Origin: a virus
Lineage: Duplodnaviria; Caudoviricetes
Reading direction: 5' to 3' (one strand)
Length of the DNA stretch: 64,000 bases
Virus record (IMG/VR): IMGVR_UViG_3300024229_000651
Both the position numbers and the translations under genes were made by a program. How positions within the stretch are numbered: position 1 is the stretch's first letter; each line of letters starts with the position of its first letter. The notes under the pieces were generated by a model. That model saw only the letters and a program-made list of their open reading frames with translations. It did no database searches and was not told the DNA's origin. Of the stretch, positions 4,190 to 52,332 are shown in pieces.

Positions 4190-4213
4190 TTAAAAAATAG
4201 ATTGACACTAAAG

Positions 4214-4241
4214 AAGCCTGCTTCACAGCAGGCTTTTTTTT
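4214..4241 (+). terminator. Rho-independent terminator
   Basis: AAGCCTGCT-TCAC-AGCAGGCTT followed by a T run. Confidence 0.85.
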
Positions 4242-4259: not shown

Positions 4260-4266
4260 ATAAATA
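4260..4266 (+). promoter_or_regulatory. Late-type promoter ATAAATA
   Basis: Just after the terminator, upstream of AAGGA RBS and the lysozyme ATG. Confidence 0.65.
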
Positions 4267-4295: not shown

Positions 4296-4739
4296 ATGGA
4301 CCGCAAAGCAATATTTGAACAACTAAAAATCGACGAAGGAGTTGTTTATGAAATTTATAAAGACCATCTGGGCTACCCAACTTTCGGAGTTGGCCACCTG
4401 GTCACAGAAAACGATCCAGAGCACGGAGCAGAAGTCGGAACATCCGTATCTGAGTCAAGAGTGGCAGAATGCTTTGAACGTGACCTTGACACCTCAATTA
4501 GTGAATGTGTTGCGTTATACGGAGAACAGTTTAATGAATGGCCAGGAGAAGTACAAGAAATCCTAGTTAACATGATGTTCAACATGGGCAGAACACGTTT
4601 AGGCAAGTTTAAAAACTTCCGCAAGGCACTAGAAGCTCAAGACTGGAAGAAAGCAGGAATTGAAGGCAGAGATAGCCGTTGGCACAAACAGGTAACTAAC
4701 CGTGCTGAAAGACTAATGGTAAGATTAGAGGAAGTATAA
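4296..4739 (+). CDS. T4-type lysozyme/endolysin (GH24)
   Basis: QLKIDEG...YKDHLGYPTFGVGHL catalytic E-x8-D-x5-T pattern; NMMFNMG; RWHKQVTNRA. Confidence 0.9.
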   Translation: MDRKAIFEQLKIDEGVVYEIYKDHLGYPTFGVGHLVTENDPEHGAEVGTSVSESRVAECFERDLDTSISECVALYGEQFNEWPGEVQEILVNMMFNMGRTRLGKFKNFRKALEAQDWKKAGIEGRDSRWHKQVTNRAERLMVRLEEV

Positions 4740-5407
4740 TGACTGTGTATACCTTCGGGTGTAGCTTTACTTACGGATGTGAAGGTAGCGACTACAATGC
4801 AACTAGTTGGGTTGAGAAACTTGCACAGAGATACCCAGATATAGAATTTGAAGATTTTGCTTATCCGGGTACATGTATAGAGTACAGTTTATATCATTAT
4901 GAAAAAGTTGCTAAAAGATTGCAGCCAGAAGATATAACTGTATTCCAGTTTACAATTCCATTTAGATACACAACATGGACTAACAGTGCAGTATTTGATG
5001 ACCCGCAGAACAGGCATAAAAAATCGTCGAACTATACAAAATTTGTACCAGATTTTAATATCAATTTAGAAAGATATATAGGTAATTTACGAAATTGGCA
5101 GTATCACGATAATCAGGAATTGCTAGATAAGGAATTTCATACAAAGTATTATACAAAATTTAACGAGGGTAAAGAGATGGCGGCATACAATGCTATCGCA
5201 AACTATCTTAGGAGTAAAACAACATTTACGTTTTTTCACACTGAGCCGCCAGCTGGCGTGGATGATAAAGACAGTGTTGTAATACAAAACATTTTAGGTA
5301 AACAGTTTAAAAAATATACGTGGGACTGGGGACGACATTTTGGTGACGAAGGCTGTAATTTTGTAGCCGACATTGTTGAAGAAAACATAGGATTAAAAAA
5401 CAAATGA
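4739..5407 (+). CDS. SGNH-like protein
   Basis: TFGCSFTYG, FAYPGTC, RHFGDEG; TAATG-coupled to the lysozyme gene. Confidence 0.55.
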   Translation: MTVYTFGCSFTYGCEGSDYNATSWVEKLAQRYPDIEFEDFAYPGTCIEYSLYHYEKVAKRLQPEDITVFQFTIPFRYTTWTNSAVFDDPQNRHKKSSNYTKFVPDFNINLERYIGNLRNWQYHDNQELLDKEFHTKYYTKFNEGKEMAAYNAIANYLRSKTTFTFFHTEPPAGVDDKDSVVIQNILGKQFKKYTWDWGRHFGDEGCNFVADIVEENIGLKNK

Positions 5408-6177
5408 AATTAAATGATTTAGGCAAAAAGTATCTAGAGTTAGAGAATGGTACAGGAAATTTTAATATAAAAGTTGGCGGTGAAACTATCAATACTGTTG
5501 CTGGGAGTGACCGTGCAAATAAATTTGTTGAGTCCTTGAAAAGAAAAGGCATCACGGCAATAGCAGAAGCGGACGAGCCCACAACTGATAAAAGTGCTAG
5601 AGCTAGATTAGATCTTAATCTACGTGATCGAGGACACAGCGTTGAAAAGCCTAAAAAAGGCAAAGGATCGTATGCACGTTCAGACAAGCATAAGAAGCCA
5701 GTGTCTGAAGGGCCACTAGTGGTTAGTAGATCATCCGACTTAATGGGGATGCTTGATGTATTACTAAAAGATTTCAAAAGCAAAAGTCCAAGCGATGAAG
5801 AAATGATCGCTTTAGTAAAGTCGCTTGGTTATAACATGACCAAAGATGGTGAGCGCACTACGTTAGTTAAAGAAGAAGATTGCGATATCGACGAGGGTAA
5901 CGGTAACATACGCAAAGGCTTAGCCGCAGTAGCGTTGATTGCTGGGTTGTGGAGTGTTAATGACCATGTAGCACAGAAGGCATATGATGCCAGTCCACAA
6001 CTACAAAAATTAACAGCATATCTAGAAGTAGCAAAAGACCATAACGATCAGCGTATGATTGATCAGTTAGAGCAACGTATTGGAAACCACAAGACCAGAA
6101 TCGATATTGGTAAGGGCGAAGTGATGGGTAACGATGGTCGCCCAGTGGACGTTAAATACGACAAGGAAGCTAATTAG
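5404..6177 (+). CDS. Modular protein with an internal ArfA-like motif; probable head-associated polyprotein
   Basis: RGHSVEKPKKGKGSYARSDKHKK at aa76-98; xxE sites IAE, VSE, VKEE, IDE; hydrophobic KGLAAVALIAGLW. Confidence 0.55.
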   Translation: MKLNDLGKKYLELENGTGNFNIKVGGETINTVAGSDRANKFVESLKRKGITAIAEADEPTTDKSARARLDLNLRDRGHSVEKPKKGKGSYARSDKHKKPVSEGPLVVSRSSDLMGMLDVLLKDFKSKSPSDEEMIALVKSLGYNMTKDGERTTLVKEEDCDIDEGNGNIRKGLAAVALIAGLWSVNDHVAQKAYDASPQLQKLTAYLEVAKDHNDQRMIDQLEQRIGNHKTRIDIGKGEVMGNDGRPVDVKYDKEAN

Positions 6178-7097: not shown

Positions 7098-7613
7098 ATG
7101 AAAATATATGAAATTACAGAAGCAGAAGGCGATAACTGTGAAAAATGTCGTGGCCGAGGCAAGTTAGACTTACATAGTGAAGATCCACATAAGTGTAATG
7201 CGTGTGATGGCACTGGCAAACAAAAGTGGAAACCAGAACCAGTTAATTTCAGTAAGTTTAAGAAGGTTGGCGAGCAGGTTGAAGAAACCATTGACAACGA
7301 TGATGATTTTTTTGAAGCATACGGCTGGATAGACGGCGAATCACTCGAAGAAGCAGAATATCAAGGACGTAAAGTTAAACTAGGCAAGCCTATGCAAGGT
7401 GATGTTAAGAAGTTTAAAGTTTATGTTAAAGATCCTAAAACAGGTAATGTTAAAAAAGTTAACTTTGGACACGGCGGAAGCAGTGTTAAAGGTAAAGCAA
7501 TGAAGATTAGAAAATCTAATCCTAAGGCTCGTAAGAGTTTCAGAGCAAGACATAACTGTGATAATCCAGGGCCTCGCACTAAGGCACGTTATTGGTCATG
7601 TAGGAAGTGGTAG
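7098..7613 (+). CDS. Leader-tagged protein with DnaJ-type Zn finger and basic C-terminal module
   Basis: MKIYEITE leader; CEKCRGRG and CNACDGTG; after LEE a K/R-rich module KKFKVYVKDPKTG...KSFRARHNC...YWSCRKW. Confidence 0.7.
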   Translation: MKIYEITEAEGDNCEKCRGRGKLDLHSEDPHKCNACDGTGKQKWKPEPVNFSKFKKVGEQVEETIDNDDDFFEAYGWIDGESLEEAEYQGRKVKLGKPMQGDVKKFKVYVKDPKTGNVKKVNFGHGGSSVKGKAMKIRKSNPKARKSFRARHNCDNPGPRTKARYWSCRKW

Positions 7614-38692: not shown

Positions 38693-38860
38693 CTACTTAA
38701 TAGATGATTGTACTTTTGGTCCAGGCTTTTTCTTAGGGCCGATCTTTTTAGGCTTCTTAGGTCGTTGCACTACTCTCTGTACATCGTTAGCAATGGACGG
38801 AATTGACGTTGCTACAGCGCCAGCTGTTATTGTTTCACCAATTATATCATGTATTTTCAT
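38693..38860 (-). CDS. 55-aa leader-tagged basic peptide (not in ORF track)
   Basis: MKIHDIIGETITAGAVATS...RPKKPKKIGPKKKPGPK; ATAAATA 6 nt upstream (38867-38873). Confidence 0.75.
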   Translation of the reverse strand: MKIHDIIGETITAGAVATSIPSIANDVQRVVQRPKKPKKIGPKKKPGPKVQSSIK

Positions 38861-40219: not shown

Positions 40220-40615
40220 CTATTTAATCTTTGGATTTCGGTAATTTTTTAAAGAATCGACTGCTGTATCAAGCATTTGTAGATAGAAAGGGTGCATTAT
40301 ATTTTCGCCACCAGTTGTGTTCATGGTCTGCAATTTAGACTTCAATCGGCGCCATTGGCCTTTTCTGCCGTCCGGGAAGGTTTGATGAACATGTGCAAGT
40401 ATATCTTGTAATATGATTCCTTTGTATGTATCTTTTGATTGATCTAACTTAGGAAAAAAATCTCTTACAAGCTGTCTATCACTTTCGTTTGTTTTCTTTT
40501 TCCTTTTAGGAAACACACTTGGGTTAGGTCTACGCAACATTTTACTAGCTGTTGCCGTGGAAGTAGCGATGGCGCCGCTGGTAGTAGTTTCTGTAATAAT
40601 ATCCGAAATCTTCAT
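40220..40615 (-). CDS. Leader-tagged hypothetical protein
   Basis: True start MKISDIITETTTSGAIATS at 40615; ATAAATA 5 nt upstream (40621-40627). Confidence 0.7.
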   Translation of the reverse strand: MKISDIITETTTSGAIATSTATASKMLRRPNPSVFPKRKKKTNESDRQLVRDFFPKLDQSKDTYKGIILQDILAHVHQTFPDGRKGQWRRLKSKLQTMNTTGGENIMHPFYLQMLDTAVDSLKNYRNPKIK

Positions 40616-41216: not shown

Positions 41217-41756
41217 CTAGTTGTTTATTCTGATATTCACGACGTCCCAATCAATGATACGCCATATATTACTAAGGTATTTAGCTTTGTCGTGCTGATA
41301 GTCTAATGCCCACGCATGCTCCCACCAATCAATGAGCATTGCTATGTCATTTTTAATTTGGTGGTTAACTATTGTTTTGATATCACCGGATAAACTCATG
41401 TACACCCATCCGCTGCCTTGAATCTTCATTGCTACTTCTTCAAACTGCTCTTTGAAAGTCGCAAAGTCGCCGTATTTGCTATCTATAAGCTCTTTACTTG
41501 CCCCTGCAGGGTTATTACTACTACTTGGTGTTTTTAGCTGTGGGAAGAATACGTTGTGTAAGAATGCACCTGCTTCCATGAACTGTGCATCTCCTTTGCC
41601 TTCATTATATTTTGTAACGTATGCTTTAGCAAGTTTGCCGTAGTGAAAATTGATTGTGTCTTCACTCATTACAGGATCCAAGTCACTCTTGCTGTAAGGT
41701 AACTTTTCTTGCACTAACACTTTTTTATCTTCTGTTAAAAAATCGTGTAGTTTCAT
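41217..41756 (-). CDS. sod: Fe/Mn superoxide dismutase with N-terminal leader
   Basis: LPY, FHYGK...AY, LHNVFF, GSGWV, IDWWEHAW; N-terminus MKLHDFLTE. Confidence 0.9.
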   Translation of the reverse strand: MKLHDFLTEDKKVLVQEKLPYSKSDLDPVMSEDTINFHYGKLAKAYVTKYNEGKGDAQFMEAGAFLHNVFFPQLKTPSSSNNPAGASKELIDSKYGDFATFKEQFEEVAMKIQGSGWVYMSLSGDIKTIVNHQIKNDIAMLIDWWEHAWALDYQHDKAKYLSNIWRIIDWDVVNIRINN

Positions 41757-41950
41757 TTTTTCTTACCGCCTTTCATATTAGCACACCAGTGATACATTTT
41801 ACCCTTTTCACCACTGTATTTTTTAGCTTTTGCCCGTAAACTACTTACCGAACCTTTGCAACTTGCGCCTGCTTTTTTGACTCTACCTGGTCTGCTCTTG
41901 CCTTTCTTCTTACCGTCAGCAAAGTTTTCTGTAATTTCAACTATTTTCAT
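41753..41950 (-). CDS. 65-aa leader-tagged basic peptide
   Basis: MKIVEITE then NFADGKKKGKSRPGRVKKAGASC...HWCANMKGGKKK. Confidence 0.8.
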   Translation of the reverse strand: MKIVEITENFADGKKKGKSRPGRVKKAGASCKGSVSSLRAKAKKYSGEKGKMYHWCANMKGGKKK

Positions 41951-44900
41951 GCGTCTGGCTTGAATTCAAACGCAAACTTTCCGCCAATGCGTGAACTGTA
42001 ATAATTCTTGGCGCCGTCTAAGCGAATTTTACCCCGGAAATTAGGTGGATACAACGCTTCCCATCCTGTTACTCTAGCATTGTCGCCTTGTTTACCCATC
42101 TTGCAGTATAACTGAACAATACTGGACTGGTTAAGGAATGCAATAGCACCTGCACTAAATTGAGGTTCTTCGTTAATCATTGCTGCTACTTTTTTAGCCA
42201 GTAACGCAATTAACGCATATCCTACATTGAATCCAGGTATGTCCTGTTTAGGTGTTCCATAGTTAAATAGTTCTTTCGCCGATTTGCTTAATCCATCGTA
42301 ATCAGTTTTTCCTGCTTTAACGTACTCCATGATTTCTAGTTCTAACTTTTTAGGTAATACACCCAACAGTTCTGCTAATCTAAATGGTCCGTCGATTGCA
42401 GTAGATTCTTGTACAATCTTAATTATTTTAACTGTGTATGCATGTGCTTTGACTAATTCTGGTGGTGCTTTATCGATAGCATCTGCAATGTTCTTAGCAC
42501 TTGCTTTTGCACCCTTGCCGCCTTTACTACTGATGCCAACTTCGGTTCCGTCTGGGCCAATGAAAACACTATCAACCAGTGCATAGTTCATTGCTTGCGG
42601 CCAGAATACTCCAAACGTAGACCACTCGGCTCCGCCCATTAAATCTTGTCTAGCATCTTCAGCTTGTCCGCCCACCATGCCGCTCATCAATGCAACTGGT
42701 CCCATGATTTCACCAAAGTAATCTCTTAGTGCCGGTAAGTTCTGTATTTGGCCTTCAAATTCAGGATGTTGCTGTGCTTGGATACTGTGCAAAGCATCTA
42801 ATAGCTGTTGCTGTATTGCGTGTCCCTGGCTGTTATTCGAGACAGTGTTTATTATGTCATCTACGCTTGTATGCTGATTTTCGTTTTTGATTAAGTGCTG
42901 TGGGTCGATACCAAGGTCTAATTTTAATGCGCCAGCTTTTTGTAATTTCCAACCAGTTGGAACTTGATTATTAGCCCATGCTCCCATCATATCTACACGC
43001 TTCTGCTTAAAATATCGACCCCAGTACACTGGCTTATCATTATTACTAGGATCTGTAAGTGTTGCAATACCGAAAGCTAGACTACCGCTGTTTGGAGTGT
43101 TAGTCCACTCAATTTGTGCATTGAGCTGTTGTTCTATATCTGATGCAAAACTTTCACGCTCTGGTGCATCATCGAACTGTGCACGATCCTGTGGGTAAAC
43201 TTCTACACTGCTGAACTCAAGCGTACTGTCCCCTTTCTTAAATTGGTCGCCCACCACTCGTCCCATTAAACCTTTTGCTTCCGCAAGTATGCTCTTAACG
43301 TGAGAGGAACTCCACTCGTTTAATTTTATTTGACTTTGAACTTCTTCAGGTAGTGCTTGAGAGAAATATTTAACTATACCTCTAGCACATGCATCGTCGC
43401 CAGCTTGCGCTCTAAGATCATGAAATGCATCTAGCATTTCAGGTATAGGCATTACTTGGTATGCAAGCATTTGCTTCTTTAAATCACATACTGGAAAATG
43501 GTCTGCCATTAACCCATTAATAATTTCTGCTCTATTAAAATCGTGCACACTCTCAAAATTCAATGCTCGCATCTCACGCTCGAATTCCAAATCGTCTAAT
43601 TTTTTACGAGTGGCTGCTTTTTTAGCATCAAATTTTGCTGGACCATACTTATCCTGGTCTTTATAAGTTTTCCTATTAGCCGATCTCTTAACTGTTTTCT
43701 TTTTACCAGGTAAACCTTTTGTCCATGCTGTGTCTGGTCTACGATTAGGCAATGAAACTTTTTCTACCCGTTGAATACCCAGTTCTTTACTTGTGGGATT
43801 GGCAGGATCTTTGTATTTTCCATCAGCTGATGCTACTTTCCTTTTGGCACCTAGTCTTGTTTGAGCAACAACTTTTTTATTTGTGCCATCCCTATATACG
43901 ACATTATACAGATATTCACCAGTGCGCAATTCTACTTTTTCATCTTCAGGTGAGGCTTTAGAAGTATCTCTGCGAGCTTGTTTTGCAATTGCTTCATCAA
44001 TTTTATTTTTATCAATTTTTTCTAAAATGGCTAGTTGTTCCAATATTGGCAACTTATCAAATTTGTCAAACGGTGTCATTTTACTTTCCTGTACATCAAA
44101 TTTTATATTAAATCTCTGGCTTAGTAATTTACGATGGTCAGTTTTTAAAAAGCTGTGCGGAACGCCGATTGGTTCGCTCTGATATGTAGTACCAGCTGGA
44201 GCAAAGCCATACTTCTTGACAAACGCATCAACAACAGGTTTATATTCCATCTTTTTGGCTTCAAATTCTGCAATATCCTGTTGTCTTTGTCTAATAGAGC
44301 CTTTGAGTCTTTCTACTTTTTCTGGTTCAGCAACTTTAAGACCTTGCTTTATACCGTCGATCAGTCCTTGTTCATGTTCGATATAACGAGTAGCCTCGTC
44401 CACTTCAAAGCGAGCACGTTTAACTTTGTCTAACTCGTCATCGCTAATCACTTTAAAATCTTGTTGACTGATTGTTGCATTACTATCGGGCTTGTTATCG
44501 CCGAATAGGTCACCGAACAGTGCACGATGCTTATCTGTGGGTATTGCTATAACGTGTCCTTTAGGTGCAGTAATAGTGTATGATGCTTCCGGTGCGTTAG
44601 CATCCTGCTTTTTCAACAAGCTGTTTACAGCCGAAGCCATCTTTTCTAGTTTGTTGTGATGATCTCCCGGGAAGTTTTTCACAAACTCTGACTGTTGTAG
44701 TTCAGTCCACAATGCTTTAGGCGTTAAGCTGAAGTCTTTTAACGCTTGTCTAAATGCTGCAATAGCCGCCGATTTAGGTTCAGCCCTATTAGCACCGCTT
44801 GCAACGTCACTGGCTAACATAGCAAAAGCTCGCACAAAGTATTTCTGTGCTTTAATCATTGTTCTACGCCAGTCTTCGTCATCGCCTTCGGCTTCGAACG

Positions 44901-47028
44901 GCATCTCTTGTTGTGGATTAGCGTTCTTTGCACTTTGTGCATCTGCTAATTCCATGTATGCATTGCTCAATGATTCAATAGCATCTGTATAATGTTTTTC
45001 ACTTGCAATACTTTGGAAAGCAGCTAACACTTTATCGTTAATGCTTTCTGGGTCAACCATTGTTTGAGCTCTTTTAACAACATCGCCGCTTACTTCGTCT
45101 TTGCCTGCAATCATTTTAAACAGTGCTTTGATGTAGTCCTTGCGATATGCTTCTTCATCATGCCCGGCTTGCATCACTGCGGCATAACGGATAACTGCTT
45201 TCATCACTTTGTCGCTCATAGTGTGATAATCGTCGCCACCTGCAACACGGAATTCAATAAGTTTATTTTGCTCTACGTTTTTAGCATCTTTAAAGTTGAT
45301 ACTGCTGAACTTGCCATTACTGATGCCGCCTAACAGTATGTCTTCGAGACCAGCAAGGCTCTTTTCATCCTTGATATCGTTTTGTAGATTTTTGATATAC
45401 TTTCGTACTGTTTCTTGTTGACTCTGTGTATAAGTGTTATGCTCTCTGCCAAACTGCTTTAACACATACTTGTCGCCTAACAGCACAGCCATTTTTAGCT
45501 TGTTAGTTTTAGCGTAGTCCGAATCCATCCAACTCATTGTGACATGCAAACCAGTTGAACTGTTTGTTTCCACATTGTTGTTGTTCATGTACTCAAACAA
45601 ACTCTTCATCTCTTTGAGCATTTCTGCTGGGTTGTCATATACAGGTGAAATAATCTCTGCTTTTGCACCTTCGCCTTCGATTGAGGTGTCATCTTCCACA
45701 CGCCAATGGTCATTGTCTACGCCTTGGCCACTGTGATATACGCCCGGACGTACATCGTTGCTCTTACTGTTGTTGCTGGCCCAATCCTCTAGCATACTAG
45801 CTACAGCATCAACACCGCCGCCTTCGCCGCCTTCGTTGTACAAGTAAATGTCCATTTCGCCTAATAGGCTCCACCAACTGCCGCCGTGTTCTCTGCGAAC
45901 CCAATCGTCCATGTCGTATTGATCCATTGCACGTTGCCAGGATTCGTCCCATGCTTCGCCATTGTCGCGGATCTGTTCCTCTAGCCACTCAATAAATTCG
46001 TCTTCTTTGTACATTTCAACATATTCACGAGGCCATGCTTCATCGTCCCAATTGCTGTACTCTTCCAGCTCGTCCTGCATGTCGTCGATTTCTAATCGCT
46101 CCAGTTTGTCTGCCTTGTACTCTTCCACTTCGTCCATGTCAACATGATCGTTTACAAACTCATCTATGTACGCTTCATCTTCTTTGCGTTCGTTGACTAG
46201 CTCTAGGACAACGTCACTCTCTATTTCGTATACAACTTCTTCTTGTAGCCATTCGCGGTATGCTTCTTCCACACTCTCCACTGCACGTGATCCTTCTTGA
46301 TCGTAAATCAAATCACCGACACGGTTCCAATACAGGTCGTCTAGCCAACTGGTGTCGTCCTCGTCACTGCCTTCGCCTAGGTTAGGCCACACAGTTTCCG
46401 CTTCAAAGCCGCACTGTATGTTCGCATTCAGTGCACCTTGTGCAAGCTCTTTGCTGTTGAAGTTGATTTCAAAAATAGGCTCACCTTGTTCGGTCATTTT
46501 AATTTTACGGGTGAGCTTTTTGATCTTTTTTTGCAAACGATCCCGCTTAAAATGAAAATTACTTGTGCTACTTTTAGATAATTTGTCTAACTTGCCTTCA
46601 GTAAACTCTGGATTAGCCACAAACACTTCTTCGTCGGGGTCGTCTATAACTGAATATTCTTTTGTTTTAGGGTTCTGCACTACTACTGCTTCAGGCTTTG
46701 TGCCTTTTCCGATAGGAGATTTTACTACACCTGCTGATTTTCCATCTTTATCAAAGTATTCCATATCTGTTTTTAGTTCGCCTGCTTTAGCATTAATAAA
46801 TTTTGGAGTCTCTTGATCATTTGCTTTAGGAACTTCTAGACCAGGCGTGGTAGTAGGGCTTCCTAAATCAGGTTTGGCTGCTGTTTTACTTGTAGTAGGT
46901 GATTTTGTAGATGCATTTGCTTTTGCACTTGATCCCATGGATTGTTGGGAAGTAGGTGTACTTGCCCCTGGCTTCATACCATACTCCATAAGTAAATGAT
47001 CTATAGTCCTAATATCTGTGAATTTCAT
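41947..47028 (-). CDS. 1693-aa multidomain protein containing a putative amidoligase (COOH-NH2 ligase) domain
   Basis: GFEAET, WRVEDDTSI, AEIISP, TNSSTGLHVTMS, KFSSINF, IEFRVAGG; many xxE module boundaries. Confidence 0.7.
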   Translation of the reverse strand: MKFTDIRTIDHLLMEYGMKPGASTPTSQQSMGSSAKANASTKSPTTSKTAAKPDLGSPTTTPGLEVPKANDQETPKFINAKAGELKTDMEYFDKDGKSAGVVKSPIGKGTKPEAVVVQNPKTKEYSVIDDPDEEVFVANPEFTEGKLDKLSKSSTSNFHFKRDRLQKKIKKLTRKIKMTEQGEPIFEINFNSKELAQGALNANIQCGFEAETVWPNLGEGSDEDDTSWLDDLYWNRVGDLIYDQEGSRAVESVEEAYREWLQEEVVYEIESDVVLELVNERKEDEAYIDEFVNDHVDMDEVEEYKADKLERLEIDDMQDELEEYSNWDDEAWPREYVEMYKEDEFIEWLEEQIRDNGEAWDESWQRAMDQYDMDDWVRREHGGSWWSLLGEMDIYLYNEGGEGGGVDAVASMLEDWASNNSKSNDVRPGVYHSGQGVDNDHWRVEDDTSIEGEGAKAEIISPVYDNPAEMLKEMKSLFEYMNNNNVETNSSTGLHVTMSWMDSDYAKTNKLKMAVLLGDKYVLKQFGREHNTYTQSQQETVRKYIKNLQNDIKDEKSLAGLEDILLGGISNGKFSSINFKDAKNVEQNKLIEFRVAGGDDYHTMSDKVMKAVIRYAAVMQAGHDEEAYRKDYIKALFKMIAGKDEVSGDVVKRAQTMVDPESINDKVLAAFQSIASEKHYTDAIESLSNAYMELADAQSAKNANPQQEMPFEAEGDDEDWRRTMIKAQKYFVRAFAMLASDVASGANRAEPKSAAIAAFRQALKDFSLTPKALWTELQQSEFVKNFPGDHHNKLEKMASAVNSLLKKQDANAPEASYTITAPKGHVIAIPTDKHRALFGDLFGDNKPDSNATISQQDFKVISDDELDKVKRARFEVDEATRYIEHEQGLIDGIKQGLKVAEPEKVERLKGSIRQRQQDIAEFEAKKMEYKPVVDAFVKKYGFAPAGTTYQSEPIGVPHSFLKTDHRKLLSQRFNIKFDVQESKMTPFDKFDKLPILEQLAILEKIDKNKIDEAIAKQARRDTSKASPEDEKVELRTGEYLYNVVYRDGTNKKVVAQTRLGAKRKVASADGKYKDPANPTSKELGIQRVEKVSLPNRRPDTAWTKGLPGKKKTVKRSANRKTYKDQDKYGPAKFDAKKAATRKKLDDLEFEREMRALNFESVHDFNRAEIINGLMADHFPVCDLKKQMLAYQVMPIPEMLDAFHDLRAQAGDDACARGIVKYFSQALPEEVQSQIKLNEWSSSHVKSILAEAKGLMGRVVGDQFKKGDSTLEFSSVEVYPQDRAQFDDAPERESFASDIEQQLNAQIEWTNTPNSGSLAFGIATLTDPSNNDKPVYWGRYFKQKRVDMMGAWANNQVPTGWKLQKAGALKLDLGIDPQHLIKNENQHTSVDDIINTVSNNSQGHAIQQQLLDALHSIQAQQHPEFEGQIQNLPALRDYFGEIMGPVALMSGMVGGQAEDARQDLMGGAEWSTFGVFWPQAMNYALVDSVFIGPDGTEVGISSKGGKGAKASAKNIADAIDKAPPELVKAHAYTVKIIKIVQESTAIDGPFRLAELLGVLPKKLELEIMEYVKAGKTDYDGLSKSAKELFNYGTPKQDIPGFNVGYALIALLAKKVAAMINEEPQFSAGAIAFLNQSSIVQLYCKMGKQGDNARVTGWEALYPPNFRGKIRLDGAKNYYSSRIGGKFAFEFKPDA

Positions 47029-48396: not shown

Positions 48397-48900
48397 TTAC
48401 TTTCTAGGCTTACGAATATTGCTTTTCATAAGTTTATCTGCAACATTAACAAAATCTTTGCTAATATCTGCGCCTAATTCAGCTGAATCAACGTTGAATA
48501 CATCCCTAGCAACTTGTTTAATCTTGTCTTTTGCTGCTTTGTACTTGGCGCCGGGTGTTGTTTTCTTATCCTGATAATACTGATTACCCCATTTCTTTCC
48601 TGATTTATCGCTAACTCTGTCAACTGTAGTGCTCGTAGTTGGCTCTGGTCTGGTCATAGGAGTTCGTTTTATTTTTTGGGCAGGTTCTTCCTTTGTATCA
48701 GGGGATTGCTTTTGTTTTCTGCGTTCGATGTCCTGAGCCATGCCAATAGCGTCTAATGCACTTATACCTTTATTAGACACTATACGTTTAGCTCTGGATA
48801 TAACATTATTACTTAACGAAGATCCGTGCTGTGCTTGTATTTGAGCTATCTGGTCAACGGTTAAATTTTCGTCTTCTAGAATTATATCGCTGATTTTCAT
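48397..48900 (-). CDS. Leader-tagged hypothetical protein
   Basis: MKISDIILEDE N-terminus. Confidence 0.7.
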   Translation of the reverse strand: MKISDIILEDENLTVDQIAQIQAQHGSSLSNNVISRAKRIVSNKGISALDAIGMAQDIERRKQKQSPDTKEEPAQKIKRTPMTRPEPTTSTTVDRVSDKSGKKWGNQYYQDKKTTPGAKYKAAKDKIKQVARDVFNVDSAELGADISKDFVNVADKLMKSNIRKPRK

Positions 48901-49679: not shown

Positions 49680-50974
49680 TATGCTCCAGGCTTCCCGGAG
49701 CCGAAATTCAATCTGCTAAATTCTAATCTATCAACTAACTTTAACGCATTGCCAATCCTGTCAACTGCTACGAAACCTTCCTCGCCAGTAACTTCAAATC
49801 CGTCACCTGTTTCTACAAAAGTTCCTATTTGCCTGATTTGTTCTAACTTTTTAACTATACGAATTTTTGCTTCGATCAACTTTAAATATAAATCGTATAC
49901 TGCAACAATTCCAGGAATGTGCTCTTTGATAAACTTAACACCGCCTACCATTTTTTCAGTTTTAGCATCTTTAGTTTTTTGCATAGAAACTTTGTCTATT
50001 TCTTTCTTCATAAAGTTAACATATTTTTCAACAAAGCCTTGCGCAAATTTAGTAGGCTCATCGAAGTGGCCTTGACGCACTTGATTATTTGCATGAGCTT
50101 TTAGCTGTTGCAAAAAGTCTTTACCGATCAAGTCGTTGCCCTTCTCTAGCCAAGAAAATGTTTCAGAATCAACACTCTTTAGATATGATGCTGCATCTTG
50201 TATTGCTTGCATTGTAGCAGAGCTTTCCTGTGCAGTCATTGTAACAGTGCCGCTAAGATCTTTAATTATCGCATCTCTGTGCCAAACACCATTGGTCTGT
50301 CCTAACACACTGCTGTCGAAGCCAAATTTTGCAGTTGTATCAGCTAGTGTTGGGCCGCCTACGTATTCTGTATGCCAAACTATACCAAAGCCTGCTGAAA
50401 GAATTTGTTTTCCTAAATCACTATCAGCTGGAACAGCATATGTGATAGTGTTGGGCTTGAATACAATATGTTCTGTATTGTCTATAACAACTTTACGTAA
50501 ATCTTCTTGTCCTGCGAATAGCATGTCGCCTTGCGCTACAGTGTCCCAATTTAATCCTTGCAAATATTTTAATGCTAATTTTAATTTAGTACGCAATCCG
50601 CTCGAATCTTTACCCTTGGGATCTGCATGATTAACATCAATATCTTTGTTTGTAAAATTTATTTTAGGTGTTTGCGCAAAAACGCCCTTAGTTCCTACAA
50701 AAAACTTACCTGTTGCAGGATCTTTACCTGCTATAATAGCAGGAGCACCATCCCATTTTGTTGTCATACTGATCGGTGCTTTTGAATTACCTTCCAGCAT
50801 ATCGTGTAAACTGTACAAATATTCTACTGCTTCTTTAGCGCCGGCATACCCTTTATTAAATATGTTGTCTTCTAGGTGCTCAAGGTGCGTGTTTTTACCA
50901 TCCTTGCTTTCTGTAATTACAGATTCAGATAATATGTTAACAACTTTAGGCTTTGATATTTCTATAAACTTCAT
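49679..50974 (-). CDS. KxDG ligase/nucleotidyltransferase-like protein with leader
   Basis: KNTHLEHLED, TTKWDGAPAI, QGDMLF, FKPNTITY, EGFVAVD; N-terminus MKFIEI...LSESVITE. Confidence 0.6.
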   Translation of the reverse strand: MKFIEISKPKVVNILSESVITESKDGKNTHLEHLEDNIFNKGYAGAKEAVEYLYSLHDMLEGNSKAPISMTTKWDGAPAIIAGKDPATGKFFVGTKGVFAQTPKINFTNKDIDVNHADPKGKDSSGLRTKLKLALKYLQGLNWDTVAQGDMLFAGQEDLRKVVIDNTEHIVFKPNTITYAVPADSDLGKQILSAGFGIVWHTEYVGGPTLADTTAKFGFDSSVLGQTNGVWHRDAIIKDLSGTVTMTAQESSATMQAIQDAASYLKSVDSETFSWLEKGNDLIGKDFLQQLKAHANNQVRQGHFDEPTKFAQGFVEKYVNFMKKEIDKVSMQKTKDAKTEKMVGGVKFIKEHIPGIVAVYDLYLKLIEAKIRIVKKLEQIRQIGTFVETGDGFEVTGEEGFVAVDRIGNALKLVDRLEFSRLNFGSGKPGA

Positions 50975-52332
50975 TATATTCCCGCAAGTAACTTCATTTC
51001 ATAAATCTTAATTTCTTTTACTGGTATAAGCATTACATGACTAGTCACGCTCTCTGATACAAGAATTTCAAACCCTACATCTTCCCACGTAAACCCTGCG
51101 GCCTCTAATACTTTGCACATATGCTGATATGCTTCTTGTCGCATACTTCTTGCAAGTTTAGTGAAATGCGTATATGCCTGGGGGTCACTTTTGGCTAAGC
51201 CGCCTTTCTTCATTACTGGAGCAGCTGCTTGTATAAATTTATCTGCATCGTATCCTTTGGTTTTTAAATTACTTAATTTACCAACAAGTGCTTTTGCAGC
51301 TGCTAAATCACCTTGCAATGTCTTGGATTGTAGCATTTTAATTTCTGATGCAGTGGGACCTGGAACTGGCTTAGGGCCTTTAGGCTGTGCTGGTGCATCC
51401 GCAGCTGGTTGGTCAGTTGCTGGTTGGTCAGTTGCTGGTGCATCTGCGGCAGGTTGTTCTCCACCTTTACCTAACGCAGACATAGCTCGGCCGATACCAG
51501 CTCCCACTGTTGCGCCAGCTTTCTTTATAGTGCCAGCATCTGGATCTGATCTTGTTGCTGTAGCAAGTGGTCCGCCGATAGCATCTGCGCCTGCTTTTTT
51601 AATTTTGTCAATACCTTGTCTAATTTTTCCGCCTAGACTATCATCCGGTGCTTGTATAACACCTGTTTTAGGATCAGGTGTTCCAGCGGCTTTATCCAAC
51701 GATTTAGACATTCTACTGTTAGGATTTTCAGCACTCGCATTTGGATCAACAACACCCTTTTGATCTGACGGCATCCAACCTTGATCATTTCGTACAAAAT
51801 GCTTACCTTGAGGCGTCTTAACAATAGCGCCAGGTATCTTACTTGGGTCTTTAGACGCTGGAGCGGCTTGTGCAGGTGCTGCTTGTGGAGCGGCTTGTGC
51901 TGGTGCTGCTTGTGCTGGTGCTGCTTGTGCAGGTGCTGCTTGTGCAGGTGCTGCTTGTGCAGGTGCTGCTTGTGCAGGTGCTGCTTGTGCAGGTGCTGCT
52001 TGCCCTGCCTTCTTAGCGGCTATTGCTGCCTTCTTTGCCTGTATGGCTGCTGATCCGCCGGCTAGTGCATCCTGTGGTTGGGCTGTACTGTTTCCTTTTA
52101 CTTGGGATCTTAAGGCCGGGTCTGTTAAAATATTGCCTTTCTTGCCGGCGGCTGTTTGTTTTACAGGAGCAACTTTAGGTTGCTTAGGCTGTGCCGGTGC
52201 TGCTTTTTTCTTTTTATTAAAAATAGCATCGTAATTGCTACTAAAGTTTTTCTGTGCTTTTGCAGACTGATCTCCACGTAATGCGCCTGGTTTTCCGGGG
52301 ACGGGTGCTTCTTCTATTTGTTCAAGTCTCAT
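50974..52332 (-). CDS. Low-complexity leader-tagged protein with QAAPA repeats
   Basis: MRLEQIEE; ten QAAP(A) units; C-terminal MKLLAGI. Confidence 0.7.
   Translation of the reverse strand: MRLEQIEEAPVPGKPGALRGDQSAKAQKNFSSNYDAIFNKKKKAAPAQPKQPKVAPVKQTAAGKKGNILTDPALRSQVKGNSTAQPQDALAGGSAAIQAKKAAIAAKKAGQAAPAQAAPAQAAPAQAAPAQAAPAQAAPAQAAPAQAAPQAAPAQAAPASKDPSKIPGAIVKTPQGKHFVRNDQGWMPSDQKGVVDPNASAENPNSRMSKSLDKAAGTPDPKTGVIQAPDDSLGGKIRQGIDKIKKAGADAIGGPLATATRSDPDAGTIKKAGATVGAGIGRAMSALGKGGEQPAADAPATDQPATDQPAADAPAQPKGPKPVPGPTASEIKMLQSKTLQGDLAAAKALVGKLSNLKTKGYDADKFIQAAAPVMKKGGLAKSDPQAYTHFTKLARSMRQEAYQHMCKVLEAAGFTWEDVGFEILVSESVTSHVMLIPVKEIKIYEMKLLAGI
51856..52002 (-). repeat. 15-bp coding tandem repeat, ten units (one 12 bp)
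   Basis: (TGCAGGTGCTGCTTG)n on the plus strand, encoding QAAPA. Confidence 0.95.

Follow-up and report, generated by a model that had tools for sequence, protein, structure and literature searches.

An ArfA-type tail between candidate prohead-protease sites in a modular polyprotein of a large T4-like marine phage

The polyprotein P0001 and its ArfA-type core

The window analyzed here is a stretch of 64,000 nucleotides from virus record IMGVR_UViG_3300024229_000651 (Duplodnaviria; Caudoviricetes). Within it, behind a lysozyme gene and a GDSL/SGNH-like gene, lies a single open reading frame (ORF) for a modular polyprotein, P0001, which resembles an internal head protein of phage T4 and carries a short segment similar to ArfA (YhdL), the RF2-dependent ribosome rescue factor of beta- and gammaproteobacteria. 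The features of the window are collected in Table 1. A preliminary description of the same DNA had placed an ArfA-like rescue peptide between two putative cleavage sites, and its positions were exact: 5569-5709 encodes aa56-102, with the ArfA-like stretch at aa76-97, IAE↓A at aa53-56 and VSE↓G at aa100-103 (the arrow marks the putative cut). The module bounded by these sites comprises 47 residues (5.3 kDa, pI 9.9). AlphaFold predicted a folded region ahead of it (pLDDT 85-91 for aa19-56), a short helix at aa65-75 and a disordered ArfA-type core (pLDDT 45-49). For the C-terminal domain, Foldseek against BFVD and PDB and an ESM Atlas look-up gave nothing informative.

Table 1. Features of the P0001 locus and of other genes in the window (positions in the 64,000-nucleotide window).
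Feature	Position	Strand	Basis or remark
P0001, 257-aa modular polyprotein resembling T4 internal head protein	5404..6177	+	single ORF
aa1-55, disordered MKLNDL... leader and small alpha/beta domain, ending IAE55↓A (codons 5560-5568)	5404..5568	+	AlphaFold
aa56-102, 47-aa basic module, released if cut at E55 and E102	5569..5709	+	
aa78-99, ArfA-type core, similar to ArfA residues ~27-48 (RF2-pairing strand, KGKGSY loop, mRNA-tunnel tail, KH motif)	5635..5700	+	
VSE102↓G site, C-terminal boundary of the module	5701..5709	+	conserved site contexts
aa103-157, folded middle domain ending VKE157	5710..5874	+	AlphaFold pLDDT 82-87
aa158-164, acidic linker ending IDE164↓G	5875..5895	+	conserved site contexts
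aa165-257, helical C-terminal domain, common to whole family	5896..6174	+	family alignments and AlphaFold model
Intrinsic terminator, closing the upstream unit and preceding the lysozyme/SGNH/polyprotein operon	4210..4239	+	terminator scan
ATAAATA box resembling T4 late-promoter core	4260..4266	+	36 nt before lysozyme start; kept in L043
Phage lysozyme gene, first gene of operon	4296..4739	+	Pfam Phage_lysozyme, E 4.3e-10
GDSL/SGNH-like gene	4739..5407	+	weak Pfam Lipase_GDSL match, 16.8 bits
ORF with MK[IL]x[DE][IL]xxE-type leader	7098-7613	+	also DnaJ-type CxxCxGxG zinc finger and C-terminal phrog_7595 domain
ORF with leader of same type	38693-38860	-	
ORF with leader of same type	40220-40615	-	
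Fe/Mn superoxide dismutase gene	41217-41756	-	Sod_Fe_C 79 bits, Sod_Fe_N 37 bits
ORF with leader of same type	41753-41950	-	
1692-aa ORF with Amidoligase_2 domain	41947..47028	-	
ORF with leader of same type	48397-48900	-	
ORF with leader of same type	50974-52332	-	

The presence of an ArfA-type core in the ORF was assessed with Pfam, with profile searches of the PDB, with hhalign and with a shuffle control. The Pfam ArfA profile PF03889 (gathering cut-off 25.5 bits) scored 22.6 bits in whole P0001, 25.6 bits in a whole-genome scan in which P0001 was the sole ArfA match, and 25.8 bits with the excised piece, the check that the preliminary description had proposed; the match was always limited to profile positions 27-44 of 44. 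When all PDB sequences were searched with phmmer, only ArfA chains were retrieved (5MDV, 5U4I, 5H5U, 5MGP and 7OJ0), aligned to ArfA residues 27-46, and a profile of six modules (alignment A2) matched ArfA in the PDB with an E value of 6.6e-7, the next sequence following at E 1.9. Alignment A2 was also compared by hhalign with 19 bona fide gammaproteobacterial ArfA genes, which are full-length PF03889 matches of 52-91 bits from the order containing Pseudoalteromonas; a class-wide sample was nearly empty (2/101) and the order-level sample (22/81) supplied the ArfA alignment. This comparison returned a probability of 98.1% and an E value of 1.1e-13 over 22 columns at 73% identity, and the core was identical to the ArfA of several Pseudoalteromonas species at 16/18 positions. 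The nearest bacterial ArfA cores came from Pseudoalteromonas, Vibrio, Colwellia and Rheinheimera, a list that is biased by the scan pattern used (VEK[PS]KKGK) and is not a host assignment; the G+C content of the phage is no guide to the host either. Scored against a hidden Markov model of the 19 ArfA sequences, the real module reached 31.5 bits and the best of 3000 same-residue shuffles 11.3 bits, which rules out lysine-rich composition as the sole cause of the match. The ArfA likeness is statistically real over the 22-residue core aa78-99.

In ArfA, RF2 is recruited by residues Q27-E30, which extend the sheet of RF2 by a strand; residues 31-48 occupy the mRNA tunnel, with conserved contacts through the KH motif; and the protein truncated at N47 is still active while that truncated after M40 is not (PMC8012679; PMC5378476). 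When V80 of P0001 was aligned to ArfA V29, the core spanned the strand, the entire tunnel segment and the KH motif; V80 and E81 fall on V29 and E30, HS stands in place of QR, and both the KGKGS(Y/F) loop and KH are present. In this register a cut at E102 would correspond to about ArfA residue 51 and the peptide start A56 to about residue 5. As the E102 end lies past the minimal active truncation N47 and close to the natural truncated form, the size and layout of the predicted peptide match those of active ArfA. The alignments support the reading of this segment as a genuine ArfA-type ribosome-binding tail, comprising the putative VEK strand, the KKGKGSY loop, an Arg and the KH motif.

As its front half the module has a polar ADEP..SARA.LD..LR.RG block, which is conserved, partly helical and also present in variants that are not ArfA-like. 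Judged by its sequence, the predicted peptide is an ArfA tail joined to a different head and not a complete ArfA. What stood of the rescue peptide first described was its 22-residue ArfA tail; it is not a whole ArfA, the RF2-activating front half being absent. The accompanying idea, that the truncated state of ArfA could be reached by proteolysis, gained the E102 end near ArfA residue 51 and a site signature on both flanks, for a cleavage which is itself presumed. A non-stop-mRNA design like that of arfA was ruled out, no terminator lying inside the ORF (the terminator scan found no plus-strand terminator-like structure within 5404-6177), and with neither hairpin nor terminator there the gene should be free of non-stop mRNA or tmRNA control. 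Since the N-terminal region and a stand-alone non-stop-mRNA gene were both looked for and neither was found, P0001 was not counted as a full member of the ArfA family. A complex prediction for the 47-mer with E. coli RF2 gave a score of 0.04, which weighs neither for nor against.

Candidate cleavage sites, leaders and operon

The T4 prohead protease gp21 recognizes the short sequence L/I-X-E and cuts after its Glu (PMC9026906). Of the 18 Glu residues of P0001, only four close an [LIVM]-x-E motif (55, 102, 157 and 164), and all four fall on domain boundaries of the AlphaFold model (19-56, 56-102, 103-157, linker, ~165 on). Site contexts were collected as the residues before each conserved module start in homologues, counting distinct contexts only. 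With three module boundaries pooled, P1 was Glu in 89/91 contexts and P3 was L/I/V/M in 88/91. Before GPLV, the start of the middle domain, Glu at P1 and L/I/V at P3 were found in all contexts (30/30 each); before ADEP, the start of the module, P1 was Glu in 20/21 and P3 I/V/L/M in 20/21; and before the C-terminal domain the counts were 39/40 for Glu and 38/40 for L/I at P3. At these boundaries P2 varied freely and P1' was A, G or S almost throughout. It is exactly at the [LIVM]xE points, moreover, that modules were gained, lost and swapped among relatives. The two cleavage sites proposed in the preliminary description, IAE↓A and VSE↓G, carry this comparative signature of T4-type prohead-protease sites, and a protease of this type is encoded in the genome. 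The comparative case for putative gp21-type sites at both flanks is strong.

The virus record comprises 339,794 bp (39.3% G+C; completeness estimate 91%). Pfam profile matches identified a Gp23 major capsid protein (270.9 bits) and a Peptidase_S77, gp21-type prohead protease (85.5 bits; genome 272084-272692, minus strand), and the head module also holds a portal and a scaffold-like protein with 11 [LIV]xE↓[AGS] motifs. On the strength of this T4-type head module we regard the virus as a very large, divergent T4-like marine phage. The polyprotein gene lies ~110 kb from the head gene cluster. A genome search found no protein with a release-factor (RF-1) domain and no tmRNA, the phage having 10 tRNAs only. 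A ClpX homologue of 424 aa is encoded outside the window (genome C1:146065-147339, minus strand), a hint of proteostasis manipulation.

The T4 capsid-targeting sequence is MKTYQEFIAE (PMC8442874); it carries the internal proteins, as well as whatever is fused to it, into the prohead, and gp21 cleaves it off (PMC9026906). Similar leaders were found in about 30 relatives of P0001, which start MK[IL]xx[IL]x(x)E (for example MKIIQITE↓A and MKITHIVE↓G). In this genome such leaders occur at 8/631 first Met residues and at 1/1937 internal ones (p 9e-5), most of them in the window (Table 1), and the leader-bearing genes of the window may constitute a set of capsid-delivered proteins. The superoxide dismutase gene of the window has the N-terminus MKLHDFLTE↓D, with an L-x-E site, and its product may likewise be packaged in the capsid.

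The polyprotein gene closes an operon in which terminator, ATAAATA box, lysozyme gene, SGNH-like gene and P0001 follow one another, the stop of the SGNH-like gene overlapping the start of P0001 (ATGA). The operon is conserved in the syntenic relative L043, which has the same terminator hairpin in the same place, and the lysozyme gene adjoins the polyprotein gene in both L043 and L044. In L043 the SGNH/GDSL-like gene itself is deleted (4905-5000), only its first ~40 and last ~60 bases being left. In T4, too, the genes for internal proteins are found apart from the head cluster, beside the lysozyme gene. The operon layout would fit late expression of P0001, although late timing is only suggested as the full T4 late octamer TATAAATA is not enriched in the window; an exact T4 late promoter was dropped as a sign of late timing on the same ground.

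Relatives, constraint and exchange of tails

The family comprises 68 P0001 homologues, all metagenomic. A word-indexed protein search with the 47-aa piece gave no candidate and a single-sequence scan of IMG/VR nothing, whereas the alignment-based IMG/VR scan did succeed. P0001 and its syntenic orthologue P0004 (L043) are 60% identical overall, with purifying selection. Within this pair the ArfA core (aa79-98) is 95% identical, with pN 0.021 and pS 0.58, while dN was 0.18 in the N-domain, 0.19 in the C-terminal domain and 0.50 in the middle domain, the fastest-evolving part. No other segment of the gene is as constrained as the ArfA core. Across the family, however, the conservation of KGKGSY on which the preliminary description had staked its claim holds in a sub-clade only, namely in 5/68 members, one of them identical to the query.

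About 22 family members carry in the same slot, between the same flanks, a lysine-rich tail of the form VVPDKKKELKKGKVKHK or VEKDKKKELKKGxVKHK. These alternative tails match the Pfam family DUF7230 (PF23876) at 15-50 bits. Neither hmmsearch (PDB profile search) nor hhalign detected similarity between the DUF7230-like variant and ArfA, and the variant was not shown to be a detectable ArfA homologue. No DUF7230 match was present in P0001 or in the whole genome at E<=1, and whole-genome profile scans found no second ArfA- or DUF7230-type element. Outside the family, an alphaproteobacterial small ORF containing NPVARSLRSPSLRRRVEKPKKGKGSY (L055/L059, a Hyphomicrobiaceae metagenome-assembled genome, and L060) matches PF03889 at 35 bits over positions 18-43 only, and its NPVA[KR] front resembles the front of DUF7230-type modules, P0018 for example; the ORF could link the ArfA and DUF7230 families in sequence.

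An exhaustive profile search of 1.84 billion proteins returned 37 matches at E<=0.001. Among polyproteins, the site-bounded ArfA-type module was also found inside proteins of 972 aa and 1663 aa and in other fusions (P0069, P0070, P0072), with P0069 joining it to DUF5824 at the C-terminal end. In the 1663-aa protein (L036 4998-9989) the module occupies aa1003-1048 and is followed by other modules of the P0001 family; the 1692-aa ORF of the window is a homologue of this protein, 39% identical over 1050 aa. The matches also included small stand-alone proteins of 44-101 aa, of which P0073 and P0076 have the motif LRxxGHxVEKPKKGKGSY in common with the module. Being used in marine phages as a gene of its own and also as a module between candidate protease sites, the ArfA tail is a mobile cassette there.

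Two further observations were made on these relatives. The stand-alone genes for P0073 and P0087 (55-62 codons) lie directly 3' of a DUF932 gene on phage-like contigs from different samples (L037-L041), a conserved pair. Small Cys/Trp-containing C-terminal modules were seen in P0012, P0022, P0035, P0075, P0078, P0081, P0083, P0005, P0013, P0016, P0027 and P0056, where two terminal modules recur, ACYHKVKSRYKVWPSAYASGALV... (with a weak DUF5872 match) and CWKGYKKxGxKxKxG..VxNCV.

Proposed route to the ribosome and known systems

These results can be arranged into a chain of events. P0001 would be a T4-type internal head polyprotein, probably made late, which is taken into the prohead and there cut by the gp21-type protease after Glu at IAE55, VSE102, VKE157 and IDE164. 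Among the products would be the 47-residue basic peptide aa56-102, with the ArfA-type tail as its last ~22 residues. This 47-mer would stay with the packaged DNA, enter the host alongside it and, in the manner of ArfA, insert its tail into the vacant mRNA tunnel where ribosomes have stalled on truncated mRNAs. The likeliest outcome would be that these ribosomes are released or recycled through a host release factor, which would make them available for phage messages or counter defences based on mRNA or tRNA cleavage. Proteolysis would replace the truncation on non-stop mRNA that yields active bacterial ArfA. The cut at E102 would be mechanistically needed, since a tail tied between folded domains could hardly thread the tunnel. 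Rescue is favored as the outcome because the layout mimics active ArfA, because stand-alone phage relatives of ArfA size exist, and because a phage degrading host mRNA or facing RNA-cleaving defences would profit from freed ribosomes. We put the whole chain, from head polyprotein and gp21-type cutting through packaging, injection and ribosome docking to rescue, at somewhat less than an even chance, its steps from entry into the prohead onwards being inferred.

Several observations weigh against this rescue chain. With respect to the ArfA mechanism, RF2 is opened for catalysis by folding of the hydrophobic N-terminal mini-domain of ArfA, a folding that is blocked by A18T (PMC8012679; PMC5378476). 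The corresponding RGxIxDNA[IL]xAL[VL] block of bacterial ArfA, which includes A18, is not detectable in the module; every alignment (Pfam, PDB profile, hhalign) stops at ArfA residue ~27, and a GH or GHS insertion of 2-3 residues lies directly before the VEK strand. With this hydrophobic region absent, RF2 activation by the ArfA mechanism is doubtful. With respect to processing and delivery, the start of P0001, MKLNDLGKKYLELE, is a longer variant of the leader with no canonical site before residue 55, which makes capsid targeting of P0001 itself less certain, and in the AlphaFold model a beta-strand ends at IAE55. Small cleavage fragments are, moreover, often expelled from T4 heads and not kept (PMC9026906). 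The octamer TATAAATA was found 4 times in the window against 8.2 expected. No match to P0001, to the 47-aa module or to the C-terminal domain was found by tblastn among 50,697 GenBank phage records, and since most family members have a DUF7230-like tail, the shared requirement could be just a basic peptide.

If the peptide were processed, delivered and docked as proposed, it might nevertheless block: by occupying the empty tunnel and the A site it would compete with tmRNA-SmpB, ArfA, ArfB or mRNA loading and shut down host rescue or translation. The module does hold only the tail and strand part of ArfA, in a phage without a release-factor domain or tmRNA of its own; the A18T variant of ArfA keeps binding and RF2 recruitment but cannot bring about RF2 activation, and trans-translation is inhibited by a synthetic peptide of the SmpB tail (PMC8012679). 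We nonetheless consider a blocking role unlikely, as stoichiometric inhibition would require many copies per ribosome and would trap ribosomes that the phage itself needs, while the stand-alone relatives of ArfA size suggest a productive factor and the conserved front half of the module may engage a release factor in its own way.

It is similarly improbable that the 47-mer serves solely as a basic internal head peptide, neutralizing packaged DNA or binding scaffold, with an ArfA-type sequence that has no ribosome role. The plain lysine-rich, DUF7230-like tail in the slot of most relatives would suit such a function, as would the pI of 9.9, and the T4 internal proteins are basic, abundant and thought to contact DNA (PMC9026906). 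A generic polycation, however, needs neither 16/18 identity to ArfA nor near-invariance of the core (pN 0.021); shuffles of the same composition do not resemble ArfA, and the core recurs in phage genes that stand alone and encode no head protein.

An unpackaged and uncut P0001, that is, a multi-domain cytoplasmic protein with the basic segment as a flexible linker or nucleic-acid-binding arm and the [LIV]xE motifs as linker composition, is distinctly improbable: its N-terminus is not a canonical short capsid-targeting sequence and its gene is far from the head cluster, but so are the T4 internal protein genes, three separate boundaries share an invariant P1 Glu with an aliphatic P3 and a free P2 in relatives down to ~30-40% identity, which is the specific gp21 signature, modules come and go exactly at the site positions, and a tail held between two folded domains could presumably not enter the tunnel.

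A broader form of the rescue proposal, which we regard as possible though rather unlikely, is that T4-like marine jumbo phages preload their capsids with a ribosome-directed peptide, so that the prohead protease would free an ArfA-type tail (a DUF7230-type tail in sister phages) that is injected with the DNA and acts on empty-tunnel host ribosomes from the first seconds. Known targets of injected T4-type head proteins include RNA polymerase (Alt) and a restriction enzyme (IPI), and host ribosomes would join them. ArfA-type factors are known from very small genes that stand alone, with non-stop mRNA and tmRNA controlling their activity; if the proposal holds, a processed and probably packaged polyprotein would be a new route of delivery and activation for a translation factor, and proteolytic maturation a second, independent way to an active truncated ArfA-like factor. 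The interchangeable tails in one slot would then give DUF7230, a large orphan family, this ribosomal target as well. Should the peptide block, it would represent a naturally occurring ribosome-rescue inhibitor. The 47-mer can be synthesized, and the ArfA-type and DUF7230-type tails in one slot offer a natural swap experiment for a widespread orphan phage family. While phage ArfA genes, T4 internal proteins and polyvalent proteins are already established, our literature search found no report of an ArfA-type tail in a capsid-targeted polyprotein cut by a prohead protease.

When compared with known systems, the predicted peptide is most directly related to ArfA (PF03889), which it resembles over residues ~27-48, in length (47 aa versus ~47-55 aa for active ArfA), in predicted disorder and in a C-terminal end just past the tunnel-binding part. 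It differs from ArfA in being embedded in a 257-aa ORF, in lacking the N-terminal RF2-activating region, in its GH(S) insertion and in its proposed proteolytic activation. Stand-alone phage ArfA-like genes (phage RXM g10, annotated ArfA, PMC8953757; phrog_37108) have the same tail but stand as genes of 44-100 codons, each with an N-terminus of its own; no experimental characterization of them was found in the literature searched. Tails of DUF7230, a family of tiny basic proteins that are mostly from phages, occupy exactly this slot in most relatives, with flanks and cut sites unchanged, and intermediate forms such as VEKDKKKELKKGxVKHK connect both tail types, although P0001 itself has no DUF7230 match; a literature search found no paper mentioning DUF7230.

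To IPI, IPII and IPIII, which are T4 internal proteins, and to Alt the system is similar in its gp21-type protease and gp23-type capsid, in the L/I-x-E boundaries, in the targeting-like leaders of relatives and neighbors, in the basic product, and in a hypervariable modular locus beside a lysozyme gene. The T4 internal proteins receive a single cut, beside the leader (PMC8442874), whereas P0001 is predicted to yield four or five fragments and in this is closer to the scaffold proteins gp22, gp67 and gp68, and tblastn against GenBank phage records found no sequence similarity of P0001 to any T4 internal protein. The polyvalent proteins of phages and conjugative elements (Iyer et al. 2017, PMC5512222), described in a paper in which ArfA has 0 occurrences, are likewise strung from small modules that are shuffled and presumably delivered and proteolytically separated, and the ArfA module also occurs in the 1663-aa protein with an Amidoligase_2 domain; in the present system, however, the separating protease would be a T4-type prohead protease and not an embedded protease domain.

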